A stretch of DNA of 31,967 bases from an uncultured Hyphomicrobiales bacterium (GCA_964449645.1 CAYVBN010000353.1:1-31967), one strand, 5' to 3'. Shown: positions 6,379 through 12,159, counted from the stretch's first letter. The notes: generated by a model from the sequence alone, not told the origin. A program made the numbers and translations.

Positions 6379-7365
6379 TTACAGCTTGAACGTCTCGTAG
6401 GTCGCCGGGTGGAACATCTCGTCGACCGAGAGGAGACGCGGCGAGAGCCCCTGGGCATGGTGATGACGCAGGAACGTCTCGAGCGTCTTGCGGTTTGGAT
6501 CGACGCCGTAGGGCCAGAAGTCCTCGCCCATCAATTCGCGCGCGGCCTTGAGCTGCTCCTCGACGAACGGCAACGTGACCTTGGTGGCCGAGGTATCGCT
6601 GAGATGCTCGAGCGCCACGGCCTTCGACTGCTCGAACGCCTTGAGGACCGCGACCGGCAGCCACGGATGCTGCTCGGCCAGCGTCCGGCGCACGCCGATG
6701 AGATGCATGATCGGGAAGATGCCGGTGCGCTTGAAATAATCCTTGGCGGTCGCGGTCGGGTCACGGAACAGCCAGCCGACGTTCGGTTGGCCGCGCATCG
6801 ATGACGGGGGCCGCGGCGCGATGAAGCCGTCGATCTCGCCCTTGATGAGCAGTTCCGAAATGGTCGTTCCCTCGGGGGCATTGTCGAGGCGAACGCCCGG
6901 CGGCAAGTTGACGGTGATCTTCTCCGGGCGCCCGGCGTGCTCGATGCCGCCGCGAATCCAGTGAATGTCTGAGGGCTTGACGCCGTAGTCCTCTTCCAGG
7001 ATGGCGCGGGCCCAGACGTTGGCGGTGAGCTGATATTCGGGCAGGCCGACCTTGCGGCCCTTGAGGTCCTTCGGCTCCTTTATCCGATCGGTGCGGACGT
7101 AGATCGAGGTGTGGCGGAACGCCCGCGAGACGAATACCGGAACGCCGACGTAAGGGCACTCGCCGCGCGCCGTCTTCAGTGTGTAGCTGCTGAGCGAGAG
7201 CTCGCAGATGTCGAAATCCTGGCTGCGGAAGGCGCGGAAGAAGATCTCCTCCGGCGACAGCGTCATGAACACCGGGTCCACGCCGTCGATGCGCACGGCC
7301 CCGTCGATGAGCGGACGATTGCGGTCGTAGTCTCCGATGGCGATGGACAGGTTCAGCTTGGCCAT
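6379..7365 (-). CDS. 4,5-dihydroxyphthalate decarboxylase family protein (periplasmic-binding-protein fold, no signal peptide)
   Basis: MAKLNLSIAIGDYDRNRPLIDG...FDICELSLSSY...PVFVSRAFRH...GLPEYQLTA...FPIMHLIG...DFWPYG. Likely ATG at 7365. Confidence 0.8.
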   Translation of the reverse strand: MAKLNLSIAIGDYDRNRPLIDGAVRIDGVDPVFMTLSPEEIFFRAFRSQDFDICELSLSSYTLKTARGECPYVGVPVFVSRAFRHTSIYVRTDRIKEPKDLKGRKVGLPEYQLTANVWARAILEEDYGVKPSDIHWIRGGIEHAGRPEKITVNLPPGVRLDNAPEGTTISELLIKGEIDGFIAPRPPSSMRGQPNVGWLFRDPTATAKDYFKRTGIFPIMHLIGVRRTLAEQHPWLPVAVLKAFEQSKAVALEHLSDTSATKVTLPFVEEQLKAARELMGEDFWPYGVDPNRKTLETFLRHHHAQGLSPRLLSVDEMFHPATYETFKL

Positions 7366-8213: not shown

Positions 8214-8849
8214 TCAGGCGGGGCTTGCCCTCACCCCGAGGCCGCGCATGAAGCGCTCCCGGATCTGGACGGGATCGCGCTCGGTGGTGGCAACGGCGGG
8301 CGCGGAATCGATCCGCGCCGCGATGAAAGTCGGCCCGTCGTTCGCGAGCGCCTCGTCGACCAGGCGTTCGAAATCCGCTTCGTCCGCCGCCCACGCGCTG
8401 TTGGAAAGTCCGGACGCACGCGCCAGCGCCACGAAGTCCGCCCGCGCTGCCGCGGGCGTCGGCTGGTTGCCGGTGATCTGATAGATGCCGTTGTCCATCA
8501 CGATCACGGTGAGGTTCTTCGGAGCCAGCATGGCGATGGTCGTGAGCGACCCGAGCTGCATCAACAGTGAACCGTCGCCTTCGAGCGCGAACACGTGCCG
8601 GTGCGGCTGCGCCAGCGCCACCCCGAGAGCGATCGGCACGGCGAGCCCCATGCTGCCCAGCATGTAGAAGTTCTGCGCACGTCGGCCGGCGGCCCACAGG
8701 TCGAAATTGGTGTTGCCGATTCCGGCGACCACCGCCTCCTCGCGGTGCAGCTTCGCCACGAGCCGCTGCGTCAGCTCAAAGCGGTTGACCACCTTGGCAT
8801 TGTGGAAACCGGCGACCTGAGGCTCTCTGCGGTTCATCTCATGTCTCAC
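8214..8849 (-). CDS. ThDP-binding subunit, sulfopyruvate/phosphonopyruvate decarboxylase beta-like (ComE-like)
   Basis: NFYMLGSMGLAVPIALGVALA and GDGSLLMQLG...MDNG motifs. GTGA overlap with the upstream gene; alternative start ATG 8837. Confidence 0.85.
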   Translation of the reverse strand: MRHEMNRREPQVAGFHNAKVVNRFELTQRLVAKLHREEAVVAGIGNTNFDLWAAGRRAQNFYMLGSMGLAVPIALGVALAQPHRHVFALEGDGSLLMQLGSLTTIAMLAPKNLTVIVMDNGIYQITGNQPTPAAARADFVALARASGLSNSAWAADEADFERLVDEALANDGPTFIAARIDSAPAVATTERDPVQIRERFMRGLGVRASPA

Positions 8850-9394
8850 TGCGCGAACACTTTGCCGCCGGTCAGCAGCGGAGAGAGGATGAAGGTGACC
8901 GGCGCCTGCGTGGCGACGGCCTGCTTGATCGAGCGGTCGACGATGAAGGCAAGCTCGTCATGCCGCGTGATCGTGTGGTGCTCGACAGCAAGCGCGGCAA
9001 GCACGGGCCGCATCGTGCGGCAGACGAGCGCCTGGCCGAGGTTGAACTCGCCGAGCGTGCCGCGCTCGGACACGAACATGAGAAGCGGGATCTGGTAAGG
9101 CACGGCGAGCGAGGCGAGCGCGTTCGGAATGGTGCCGAAGCCGCTCGTCTGCATCAGCATGGCGCCGAGCCGCCCGCCCATCCAGGCGCCGGTGAGGATT
9201 CCCACGGCCTCCTCCTCGCGCGCGGCCGGGAAGGTCGTGAAATAGGCGTCCGCGTGCAGCGCCTCGATCAGAGGCGTGAACACGCGGTCCGGCACGTAGA
9301 CCACGAGATCGATCTTGTTCTCTCGCAGCGTCTCCAGCACCACGCGGTGCCAGGGCGTTTCATCCGGCGCGTTCATCAAGTCCTCGGCGGCCAT
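8846..9394 (-). CDS. Sulfopyruvate/phosphonopyruvate decarboxylase alpha-like subunit (ComD-like)
   Basis: VVYVPD, AREEEAVGILTGAWMGG, MQTSGFG and PLLMFVSERG motifs. Alternative start 9376. Confidence 0.85.
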   Translation of the reverse strand: MAAEDLMNAPDETPWHRVVLETLRENKIDLVVYVPDRVFTPLIEALHADAYFTTFPAAREEEAVGILTGAWMGGRLGAMLMQTSGFGTIPNALASLAVPYQIPLLMFVSERGTLGEFNLGQALVCRTMRPVLAALAVEHHTITRHDELAFIVDRSIKQAVATQAPVTFILSPLLTGGKVFAQ

Positions 9395-9427
9395 TTCACC
9401 CCTGATCGCCGTGCATGTCGACGACCA

Positions 9428-10780
9428 TTATGCAGGCTCCGCCTTCGTTTCCGGCGGCACCGGGCAGAGCAGAGCATGCAGGATGACGAGGGTAAGGCCG
9501 CCGGAGATGACCGGCTGCTCGACCACCAGCCGCAGCATGAGCGGCATCGCCTCCAGCACGTCGGGCCGGATGAACAGCCCGCCAAGCCCGATCAGCAGCG
9601 CGAAACCGGCCACGATGTACTTGCGGTCGTCCCAATCGACCTTCGCCAGGATGTGCACGCCGTGCATGAAGACGATGCCGAACAGCAGCGTGGCGGCGGC
9701 GGACAGCACCGGCAGCGGCACGAGCACCAGCAGCATGTCGAACTTGACGCAACCGCCGAGCACGATCAGCAGCACGCCCGCGGCGAGCGTGGCATAGCGC
9801 GAGGCGACCCGCGTCGCGCGCAGCATGCCGATGTTGTCCGGATAGACGATCGTGCTGAAGCCGCCGACGATGCCGGCAAGCACGGACCCGAGCCCGACCG
9901 CGAACACACCCTGCGACATCCGCCCCGACGAGAGCTTCTCGCCGCCCCAGTCGGCGACCATCTGATACAGGGCCATCGAACCGAACCCGGCGGGAATGAG
10001 CACCAGAAGAAACACGATCACCAGATCGGCCTCGACGCCGAAGCCGAACGGGAACCAGCGCGGGGTGACGATCAGCGGGGCCTGGGCAATGGCGCCGAAG
10101 GAGATCGGTCGGAACACCGCATAGCAGATCGTGCCGGCCGCAAGGCCGAGCAGGATCGCCGCACGGCGCAGAATGCGGCCGCCCCATAGCGTGACGATGA
10201 TCAGCACGGCCACCGCAAGCGCGCCCGCCCCCAGATTGACGACCGGGAATCCGGGACTCTGGCGCAGGCCGATCCAGTTCGGCAGCGCCACGTTCGCAAT
10301 CTGGATCATGACGAACATCACGATCATTCCGGAGATGATCGGCGCGCGCAGATAGCGGGCGAACAGGCCGATGATGCTCCAGCCGCGGATCGGAACAGTC
10401 AGCACGCACCAGATGATCGAAGCGACGAAGAACGACCCGTAGGCGAAGCCGAGCCCGCCCGACTGCAGATGACCAACCGCCAGCAGGGCGGCGAAACTGC
10501 CCGCATAGGGACCTTGCACGATCGGCAGCCTCAGCAGGAAGGCCGACTGGAGAATCGTAATGATGCCGCAGACCGCGAAGGTCATCCCGTACAGATAAGC
10601 GATCTGCTCGGCCGGCAGGTTGAACGCGCGGCCGAGAAGGCCCGGAAACACGAACATTCCGGTCATGCCGAAGATGTTCTGAAGCCCCAGCACGAGAAGC
10701 TGTCCAGGCGGCAGGCGATCGTTGATTCCGACGTCGAAAATGGCCGGCGAATCAGCCTGCCTTGTCGCCTCGGCGTTCAT
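9428..10780 (-). CDS. NCS2/uracil-xanthine permease family transporter with a divergent substrate site
   Basis: ATG 10780 with a GGAGG SD. About 14 hydrophobic segments, LGLQN and PDNIGMLRATRVASR (NCS2 signature-like). Confidence 0.85.
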   Translation of the reverse strand: MNAEATRQADSPAIFDVGINDRLPPGQLLVLGLQNIFGMTGMFVFPGLLGRAFNLPAEQIAYLYGMTFAVCGIITILQSAFLLRLPIVQGPYAGSFAALLAVGHLQSGGLGFAYGSFFVASIIWCVLTVPIRGWSIIGLFARYLRAPIISGMIVMFVMIQIANVALPNWIGLRQSPGFPVVNLGAGALAVAVLIIVTLWGGRILRRAAILLGLAAGTICYAVFRPISFGAIAQAPLIVTPRWFPFGFGVEADLVIVFLLVLIPAGFGSMALYQMVADWGGEKLSSGRMSQGVFAVGLGSVLAGIVGGFSTIVYPDNIGMLRATRVASRYATLAAGVLLIVLGGCVKFDMLLVLVPLPVLSAAATLLFGIVFMHGVHILAKVDWDDRKYIVAGFALLIGLGGLFIRPDVLEAMPLMLRLVVEQPVISGGLTLVILHALLCPVPPETKAEPA

Positions 10781-10839: not shown

Positions 10840-10852
10840 CAGCGCGTCAACG

Positions 10853-10947
10853 CTAGTGTCCCGGTTCCGAAGTTCGCAAGACCTTGCAAAAGGCTCCGAT
10901 GCGAACTTTGTCTGAATCGGTGTCCCCATTTTTGGATCATGCTCTAG
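10853..10947. repeat. CTAG-bounded composite palindromic repeat
   Basis: Begins at CTAG (10853) and ends at CTAG (10944-47). Internal IR AAGTTCGCA (10870-78)/TGCGAACTT (10899-907), with a 3' GATCATGCTCTAG end typical of Rhizobiales CTAGAGCAT-type repeats. Confidence 0.65.
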
Positions 10948-11793
10948 GTCGTGTGGACACTTATCGTGTCCATAGCACGATAGCTGCGAGAGTGACGACT
11001 GCGCGGTAATTTCGGGCGGTCTTTTCGAAGCGGGTTGCAACGCGTCGGAACTGCTTGAGCTTACTGAAACAGCATTCCACCAGATGTCGCTGGGCGTAGA
11101 GATGCTTGTCGAGCGGATATTTGAGCGCCCGTGACGGGTTGTTGGGAATCACGGCCAACGCTCCCTTGGCGGCGATGGCTTGCCGCAGGTGGTCCGCGTC
11201 ATAGGCTGTATCGGCCATGACGACCTCGGCGGGCAGTTCCTCGATCAGGGCTGCAGCTTGTGGTGCATCACCCTTCTGACCCGCGGTCAGTATGAACCGC
11301 ACGGGGCATCCCAAGCCTCGAACGGCCATGTGGATCTTGGTGCTCAGGCCGCCGCGCGAACGGCCGATGGCTTGATCTTCAGACCCCCTTTTTTAGCCCC
11401 GGCAGCGGGCTGATGGGCGCGGACGATGGTGGAATCAACGATCAGATATTCGAAGTCCGGATCATCGGACATCGCCTCGAAGATGCGCCACCAAACACCT
11501 TTGGTGCTCCAGCGACTGAAGCGCCGGAAAACGCTGTTCCAATCGCCAAACACCACGGGAAGATCACGCCAGGGCGCGCCCGTCCGCACAATCCATAGGA
11601 CGCCCTCCACGAACATTCGGTTGTCGCGTCCAGTTGATCCCCTTTGGTCGGGCCGGCCGATGATCAGCGGTGCCATCCGATCCCACGCCGCGTCGCTCAA
11701 AACCAAACGGTCCATCACACCCAAGACTGCCTCCCAAAACGCAGTCTTGAATCTGATTTGCCGCTTCAAGGGAATCCCAAGTGTCCACACGAC
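10948..11793 (-). mobile_element. IS5-family insertion sequence (IS427-group-like), 846 bp
   Basis: Perfect 15-bp terminal IRs GTCGTGTGGACACTT (10948-62)/AAGTGTCCACACGAC (11779-93), flanked by CTAG on both sides (10944-47, 11794-97). An alternative reading is 10947-11794 with a TA duplication. Confidence 0.92.
10961..11715 (-). CDS. IS5-family transposase, split orfA/orfB joined by a -1 frame change
   Basis: orfA is MDRLVLSDAAW...WIVRTGAPWRDLP...IVDSTIVRAH. orfB is GRSRGGLSTKIH...MADTAYD...RHLVECCFSKLKQFRRVATRFEK. A6G5 run at the junction (+ strand 11384-11394). Confidence 0.9.
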
Positions 11794-12159
11794 CTAGACC
11801 TCGTTCCGGAACACGAAGCCCCGCGGCCCGCGGTAGAAGCGGCCGGTCAGGGTCCGCCGCAAGGTCCCGGTCACCACGCCGATCTCGACCGAAAAGGCGC
11901 ACACGTGGGCTCTGCCGGGCCGGTCGTGCCGGCAGTCGAATTTGCGCAGTGAGTGTATCTCGAAGCGGTCGGTGCCGGCCTGGCGAACCCGCTCGACGGC
12001 TTCGGCGCCTCCGGTCTCGGCCAGGAAATCGAGCGCGCTCCGAACTCCGTCAGCCAGTGCGGCGGCGAAGGCCCCGCTCATCTCGCGCTCGCTCGGCTCG
12101 TCGGTGGTGACGCCGGTCACCAGACCCAAAAGCACGACCGGCACCACCATCGCGCGCAT
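11794..12159 (-). CDS. Hypothetical exported protein (121 aa)
   Basis: N-terminal hydrophobic stretch and two Cys. Its TAG stop coincides with the IS-flanking CTAG. Confidence 0.65.
   Translation of the reverse strand: MRAMVVPVVLLGLVTGVTTDEPSEREMSGAFAAALADGVRSALDFLAETGGAEAVERVRQAGTDRFEIHSLRKFDCRHDRPGRAHVCAFSVEIGVVTGTLRRTLTGRFYRGPRGFVFRNEV

Follow-up and report, generated by a model that had tools for sequence, protein, structure and literature searches.

What does a transporter of the NCS2 family carry when its nucleobase-binding residues have been replaced, and does it serve the enzymes encoded beside it? This question is raised by a stretch of 31,967 nucleotides from an uncultured Hyphomicrobiales bacterium (GCA_964449645.1, CAYVBN010000353.1:1-31967; hereafter the window), in which positions 8214 to 10780 encode an NCS2 transporter and, directly downstream, the two subunits of a thiamine diphosphate (ThDP) enzyme. 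Comparison with related loci showed that the conserved partners of the clade to which this transporter belongs are a UbiD decarboxylase and molybdenum hydroxylases, not the thiamine decarboxylase.

A clade with a rebuilt binding site

The transporter gene (9428-10780, minus strand) is intact, starts with an ATG behind an AGGAGG sequence and encodes a divergent NAT/NCS2 protein of 450 amino acids (aa). Its score of 169.4 bits against the PF00860 profile (cut-off 27) places it in the NAT/NCS2 family, and it scored 65.8 against NF037981 (cut-off 40); the scores with the TIGR00801, pbuX, uraA and rutG profiles were under their cut-offs. The AlphaFold model (pLDDT 92.6) contained short strands at residues 89-91 and 310-312, before transmembrane segments (TM) 3 and 10, as in the 14-TM 7+7 fold, and its top 13 Foldseek matches were SVCT1, UapA and UraA. 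With UraA, XanQ, UapA and SVCT1 (NAT/COG2233, TC 2.A.40) the protein shares the fold (TM-score 0.73-0.81 by query), the Pfam family, the N-x-G-x4-T-R sequence of TM10 and an aromatic residue ahead of this motif, whereas it is only about 21% identical to them. A recent foreign origin of the gene was considered, of which the composition gave no sign (GC content at third codon positions 0.86, against 0.84-0.90 in neighbouring genes).

Canonical nucleobase NATs are described as having a Gln-His pair in TM1 and the motif [Q/E/P]-N-x-G-x4-T-[G/R/K] in TM10, the Glu of TM8 being one of the two main contacts of the nucleobase (PMC5972032). Residue equivalences were taken from an alignment with Escherichia coli UraA, RutG, XanQ, XanP, UacT and YbbY. 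In TM1 (10676-10681, minus strand) Gln34-Asn35 replaces the canonical Gln-His, Asn35 standing at the position of His24 in the Gln23-His24 pair of UraA. The TM8 segment (9965-9997, minus strand) has neither the substrate-binding Glu nor the His/Asp; Gly267 and Leu271 correspond to Glu241 and His245 of UraA and are followed by an invariant Tyr272. In TM10 (9827-9844, minus strand) the signature reads Y313-P314-D315-N316-I317-G318 against Y288-G289-E290-N291-I292-G293 in UraA. Here Gly289 has given way to Pro314 and Glu290 to Asp315, which is outside the set allowed at the first position of the motif. The first-pass annotation had pointed out the same three features (His to Asn in LGLQN, Asp behind Pro in YPDNIG, no acid in TM8), and the alignment bears it out.

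The substitutions are shared by nearly all of 196 clade members (Asn35 in 187, Gly267 in 189, Pro314 in 196 and Asp315 in 195), and a Glu at the TM8 position occurs in one member only (L078). Tyr92, Tyr272 and His373 are polar residues that are new in comparison with UraA, XanQ, UapA and SVCT1 and invariant in the clade. Relatives at 72-84% identity come from Acidobacteriota, Burkholderiaceae, Xanthobacteraceae, Stellaceae and other groups. In a FastTree tree the clade formed a single branch (support 0.999), separate from every E. coli protein that was included. Because the substitutions are near-invariant in relatives from several phyla, they define the clade and are not due to chance. The transporter is a member of a real, widespread and apparently unstudied clade with a rebuilt pocket; a literature search that lay mostly outside the subscription journals returned no paper on this clade or on an NCS2 transporter together with UbiD and molybdenum.

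Basal members retain the Gln-His pair and/or the TM8 Glu, so that the pocket changed stepwise. Several basal relatives (L212-L214, L210 and L219; 32-35% identity) were found in other gene contexts, i.e. a glyoxalase-aldehyde dehydrogenase-ThDP enzyme-flavin monooxygenase group with MarR, a phosphoribosyltransferase, or MarR and an isochorismatase on a plasmid of Sodalis praecaptivus. A canonical nucleobase is an unlikely substrate, because two of the three defining motifs of canonical NATs (PMC5972032) are disrupted, and the disruption is conserved. To this extent the earlier designation as a non-nucleobase NCS2 with a rewired site can be kept; the import of a sulfonate, phosphonate or 2-oxo acid that went with it was not supported.

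Conserved gene partners

A large subunit of a molybdenum hydroxylase was encoded within 7 kb of the transporter gene in 62 of 80 NCS2 loci, one particular UbiD in 25 and either of them in 67. The genome of the window (G000) contains 25 such molybdenum genes in 4.48 Mb, so that about 8% would be expected by chance per 15 kb. That UbiD was present in 45 of 50 NCS2-bearing genomes at E<=1e-100 (43 at E<=1e-200) and in 32 of 130 genomes of the host family, including all three of that family that have the transporter. Judging by the names of homologues, the host is probably an alphaproteobacterium of the Xanthobacteraceae type. The NCS2 loci are related to one another (24 from Burkholderiaceae and about 14 Xanthobacteraceae-like), as are the genomes, for which reason no p-value is given.

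The layout of the genes varied with the host. In Acidobacteriota the order is molybdenum enzyme, amidohydrolase-2, lactate-permease-like gene, UbiD and NCS2. The lactate-permease (LctP)-like gene is divergent and stands directly before UbiD-NCS2 in L002, L003, L215 and other Acidobacteriota loci, where it is a second candidate carboxylate transporter in the operon. Burkholderiaceae combine two UbiDs, UbiX, CoxLMSG, an enoyl-CoA hydratase, an aldehyde dehydrogenase, a hydrolase, a CMD protein, GntR, an MFS transporter, NCS2, porins and sometimes a Rieske oxygenase; in two genomes that were read further out, the UbiDs, UbiX, CoxLMSG, the enoyl-CoA hydratase and the aldehyde dehydrogenase lie just past the 7-kb flank. 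Alphaproteobacteria have UbiD-NCS2-CoxL, or NCS2 adjoining CoxL. The neighbouring CoxL proteins were also considered as true CO dehydrogenases, which was rejected as no CSFR-type loop was found in them, many having YRGAGR. Distant clade members keep such neighbours as well (molybdenum enzyme, UbiD and UbiX at 51% identity; molybdenum enzyme, CoxG and amidohydrolase at 43%; UbiD at 38%). As these are different proteins, they argue for a functional tie and not for shared descent of one block. The transporter is thus very probably linked to a UbiD/molybdenum route.

In the genome of the window a matching cluster is carried by contig C70 (UbiD 72%, CoxL 69% and NMT1-like protein 64% identical, with a hydrolase and an isochorismatase-family enzyme), and a plasmid of Rhizobium jaguaris has the same gene set, NCS2 included. 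The best PDB matches of the C70 isochorismatase include 4l07 and 3ot4, which we take to be maleamate amidohydrolases of pyridine catabolism. The sister species G001 has the cluster, with a UbiD 91% identical, but no NCS2. This implies that the transporter is accessory to the cluster, for which an ABC importer is a likely alternative. The C70 region (L183:2466-19813) comprises two CoxL-type subunits, the UbiD of about 550 aa, the NMT1-like protein, the isochorismatase, a PcaD-like hydrolase, the ABC importer and IclR, and related clusters were seen on Neorhizobium and Rhizobium plasmids. NMT1-fold proteins that lack an obvious signal peptide are encoded both there (L183:6238-7224) and in the window (6379-7365; syntenic in G001), and presumably resemble 4,5-dihydroxyphthalate decarboxylase. 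Two further paralogues of the UbiD family are found on contigs C185 and C7 of the same genome (L188 and L189; 59% and 53% identical to the UbiD of L003), one of them accompanied by CoxL/CoxS and an amidohydrolase; some genomes have up to six paralogues.

A candidate substrate and its rivals

UbiD enzymes decarboxylate (hetero)aromatic or unsaturated acids, and enzymes of the xanthine-oxidoreductase family hydroxylate N-heterocycles beside the ring nitrogen or oxidize aldehydes. On balance, with modest confidence, we regard the transporter as bringing in a heteroaromatic carboxylic acid that is degraded by a UbiD/molybdenum-hydroxylase route not yet described, and we lean to the same modest degree towards an N-heteroaromatic acid. 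It would be an ion-coupled elevator-type importer with the NAT/NCS2 fold, its pocket rebuilt for an acid that is most likely a nitrogen heterocycle, e.g. a pyridine-type mono- or dicarboxylate; the matches of the C70 isochorismatase favour a pyridine-type ring. The transporter would supply a route consisting of the UbiD decarboxylase with UbiX, CoxLMS-type molybdenum hydroxylases and amide or lactone hydrolases, of which contig C70 would be the gene cluster in the genome of the window. Based on the alignment rather than on docking, Tyr313 would stack on the ring of the substrate, and Asp315 and Asn316 would form hydrogen bonds with the ring NH or lactam (the ring nitrogen). As the sole acid left at the canonical binding positions, Asp315 may carry the proton in co-import with the acid. 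Loss of the TM8 Glu and His would take away charge and free space for the carboxylate, which could be held by the clade-invariant Tyr92, Tyr272 or His373.

The enzyme logic of such a route appears to resemble that of two described pathways, pterin/lumazine degradation cluster I of Cupriavidus sp. LA-1 (LuDH, DHLI and XCDC; PMC12391406) and the picolinate pic cluster of Alcaligenes faecalis JQ135 (10.1101/530550). With the former, the NCS2-clade clusters have in common a molybdenum hydroxylase, UbiD/UbiX, an amidohydrolase-2 and a nucleobase-type transporter in one cluster, but no paired amidohydrolases or deaminase were seen in them. When the pteridine-type cluster on pSymB of Sinorhizobium meliloti was taken as a proxy for LA-1, its canonical Gln-His NCS2 was only 26%, its UbiD only 29% and its molybdenum subunit 30-35% identical to the proteins of the clade. 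By these values the clade's cluster is not orthologous to the S. meliloti cluster, which argues, through this proxy only, against identity with lumazine cluster I. The features in common with the pic cluster are a three-subunit dehydrogenase, a decarboxylase, maleamate-type hydrolases and an AndAc/NagG-type Rieske oxygenase, the last seen in seven Burkholderiaceae loci. The decarboxylase PicC is an amidohydrolase and not a UbiD. By its description, the pic cluster also has a 2,5-dihydroxypyridine dioxygenase. The literature search mentioned above gave no paper on the isonicotinate (ina) cluster, which presumably could be another match.

Several observations weigh against an N-heteroaromatic acid and the UbiD/molybdenum route. 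The roles of the pocket residues and the substrate are derived from alignment and gene context. The host family does not provide a matched background for Acidobacteria or Burkholderia, and because the loci are kin, the counts overstate independence. In the Xanthobacteraceae-like loci CoxL is convergent, on the other strand. The closest relative of the transporter (84%) adjoins a gene of the isocitrate-lyase/phosphoenolpyruvate (PEP)-mutase superfamily and has no UbiD or molybdenum gene within 8 kb. No 2,5-dihydroxypyridine dioxygenase was recognized in the clusters. Finally, the closest solved relative of the UbiD is 6h6x/6h6v (E 1.9e-42), which we take to be HmfF, a furan-dicarboxylate decarboxylase, the substrate of which contains no nitrogen. 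As to the gene beside the 84% relative, a phosphonate link through this 'PEP_mutase' (PF13714) was rejected, since it scores best as methylisocitrate lyase, under all cut-offs.

The match with HmfF leaves a furan-type acid open. More generally, the substrate of the clade might be a (hetero)aromatic acid that contains no nitrogen, such as a furan-, thiophene- or hydroxybenzene-(di)carboxylate, to be decarboxylated and hydroxylated in an Hmf-like way; the enoyl-CoA hydratase and CoA-transferase genes of some clusters, together with an aromatic-acid MFS transporter, the PcaD-like hydrolase and the CMD protein, are consistent with this. Enoyl-CoA hydratase and CoA-transferase are also part of furoyl-CoA breakdown. 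However, the 6h6x/6h6v match is distant, no gene for a CoA ligase turned up in the core cluster, and a maleamate-amidase-like enzyme is present in the alphaproteobacterial clusters. Moreover, the scaffold of a nucleobase transporter with retained Asp/Asn hydrogen-bonding residues fits a ring nitrogen, and a nitrogen-free acid is considered unlikely.

A second possibility is that the transporter still carries a nucleobase or modified nucleobase (uracil, xanthine, or a carboxylated pyrimidine or purine) and that the molybdenum enzyme is a nucleobase dehydrogenase. The retention of Gln-His and the TM8 Glu in basal members would suit this, as would the phosphoribosyltransferase next to one of them and the position of another, L204, downstream of uricase-pathway genes. 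Furthermore, all three motifs are likewise missing from E. coli YbbY, which is reported (unpublished) to carry purines (PMC6308229), and in lumazine cluster I purine-type transporters accompany the same types of enzyme (PMC12391406). Yet the TM8 Glu, a main nucleobase contact (PMC5972032), is gone in the crown clade, the adjoining molybdenum subunits are far under the XdhA/XdhB/PucD cut-offs, and the pSymB cluster is as distant as described above. This makes a nucleobase substrate quite improbable.

The adjacent enzyme pair and the meaning of the clade

The first-pass annotation had the transporter feed the enzyme encoded directly after it, described as split ThDP decarboxylase genes of the sulfopyruvate/phosphonopyruvate type. 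The alpha (pyrimidine-binding) subunit (8846-9394, minus strand) has 182 aa, or 176 aa from the ATG at 9376. The beta (diphosphate-binding) subunit (8214-8849, minus strand) starts with a GTG that overlaps the alpha stop, or has 207 aa from the ATG at 8837. Both genes are intact and follow the transporter as stated, on the same strand, 33-51 nt from its stop and with no terminator-like site between. The cofactor motifs of a split ThDP decarboxylase are present, GDG-x(24-27)-N in beta (GDG...DN) and the conserved Glu in alpha. The type holds only loosely: the alpha subunit scored 113.7 against the ComD profile TIGR03845 (cut-off 147.95) and is not a true ComD, the beta subunit 163.3 against the ComE profile TIGR03846 (221.5), and the two 68.5 and 135.8 (beta) against the phosphonopyruvate decarboxylase profile TIGR03297 (312.5). 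The beta subunit scored 348.6 with NF004813 (cut-off 240), which makes it an equivalog of the 'hypothetical protein' PRK06163.

The pair is 30% and 43% identical to ComD and ComE of Leisingera (sulfopyruvate decarboxylase, EC 4.1.1.79), which lie in a cluster read as 2,3-dihydroxypropane-1-sulfonate (DHPS)/sulfolactate genes, and differs from them by YVPDR for TVPCK in alpha (Pro-Cys to Pro-Asp) and QTS for QN(T/S). The split two-gene design, the GDG...N motif and the alpha-subunit glutamates are shared with ComDE, with the phosphonopyruvate decarboxylase RhiEF (9iz3/9iz4) and with the alpha-imino acid decarboxylase AzcBC (9u8q-s). The alpha-subunit fold is nearest RhiE and AzcB/C (Z 11.9 and 11.7 for RhiEF and AzcBC), as identified with a mediocre model (pLDDT 64) that served for this only. 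As AzcBC shows, a split enzyme may have a substrate other than sulfo- or phosphonopyruvate. Unlike these three enzymes, the pair is under all curated cut-offs and occurs with TctC and 2-hydroxyacid/oxalate genes. Its recurrent neighbours in 90 loci were a divergent TctC receptor (37), a D-2-hydroxyacid dehydrogenase (21) and an acyl-CoA ligase (15), with oxalyl-CoA decarboxylase, glyoxylate carboligase or BoxB in a few; no sulfolactate/DHPS or phosphonate genes were recognized among these recurrent neighbours (the whole genome was not searched) and no PEP mutase among the neighbours. One may guess that the pair acts as a small 2-oxo-acid decarboxylase with a role in C2/C3 acid metabolism. In several soil contigs (L104, L105, L106, L119 and L120) it directly adjoins benzoyl-CoA epoxidase (boxB) genes. 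The same literature search gave no paper on the PRK06163 pair in Bradyrhizobium.

The co-occurrence in other genomes on which the earlier proposal had been staked was absent from the neighbourhoods: the pair was adjacent to NCS2 in 0 of 80 NCS2 loci, and NCS2 was found at 0 of 90 ComDE-like loci, 51 of which had at least 600 nt upstream of alpha. A single NCS2 locus had a paralogue of the pair (37%/28% identical), 5.5 kb away on the other strand. Among the 130 host-family genomes NCS2 occurred in 3 and the ComE orthologue in 28, 27 of which had no match to NCS2; the one with both had them on different contigs. The orthologue was present in 12 of the 50 NCS2-bearing genomes, all alphaproteobacterial, which is close to this background. 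G001 is syntenic on both sides but has the order aldo-keto reductase (AKR)-comD-comE without NCS2, and in a second close relative (alpha subunit 90% identical) AKR likewise directly precedes comD. AKR-NCS2-comD was found only in assemblies of the window's species; the adjacency is species-restricted. In all likelihood it is non-functional, the transporter probably being co-transcribed with AKR and the PRK06163 pair, yet not serving them. That its substrate is a 2-oxo acid, sulfonate or phosphonate destined for the pair, at most after recent species-level recruitment into an AKR-NCS2-comD-comE operon, might be read from the close spacing, the AKR-NCS2-comD(-comE) order in two more assemblies of the species, the loss of the TM8 acid, which suits an anion, and a weak likeness of the G001 AKR-comD spacer to the NCS2 3' end (borderline, 24 of 500 shuffles reaching the score), which could mean that the gene was once genus-wide; it is very improbable in view of the above distribution, the usual neighbours of the pair and a pocket identical to that of relatives without the pair.

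Upstream of the transporter, its leader contains a multi-copy intergenic repeat (10851-10908; 12 or more further copies in the genome), followed by an IS5-type insertion sequence (IS) with inverted repeats (10944-11797; family by reading of the open reading frames). It is located at the CTAG that ends the upstream AKR gene in the conspecific GCA_035548255.1 and separates NCS2 from that gene in the window. The flanks of the IS are unlinked in GCA_035548255.1, where AKR precedes NCS2, the other flank being a 121-aa gene (11794-12159) and then a methyltransferase. In G000, AKR stands at the end of contig C674, which stops about 20 nt before the CTAG, and the assembly has a single copy of the IS. 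It is possible that the window is a chimera joined across a collapsed IS, or that the IS has rearranged it.

The operon-like adjacency thus fails comparison; what makes the finding interesting is the clade with its orphan pathway rather than the operon of the window. Purines or pyrimidines are the substrates of the characterized bacterial NATs, and of divergent prokaryotic branches it has only been noted that their function is unknown (PMC5972032, PMC6308229). The clade is a defined, testable case, with fixed pocket substitutions and basal members that, having the old residues, form a natural series for a specificity switch, and there are cultured hosts with transporter and enzymes in one cluster (Paraburkholderia, Caballeronia and Rhizobium jaguaris). 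Tentatively, it may represent a bacterial NAT/NCS2 subfamily that has wholly departed from nucleobases, as the dedicated importer for a widespread, undescribed prenylated flavin mononucleotide (prFMN)/molybdenum pathway by which Acidobacteriota, Burkholderiaceae, Alphaproteobacteria and other phyla break down an N-heteroaromatic (di)carboxylate common in soil. If true, this would be a microbial counterpart of the vitamin C transporters, reached through different substitutions. The substrate of the clade, once found, would in addition give a common orphan UbiD family its assignment.

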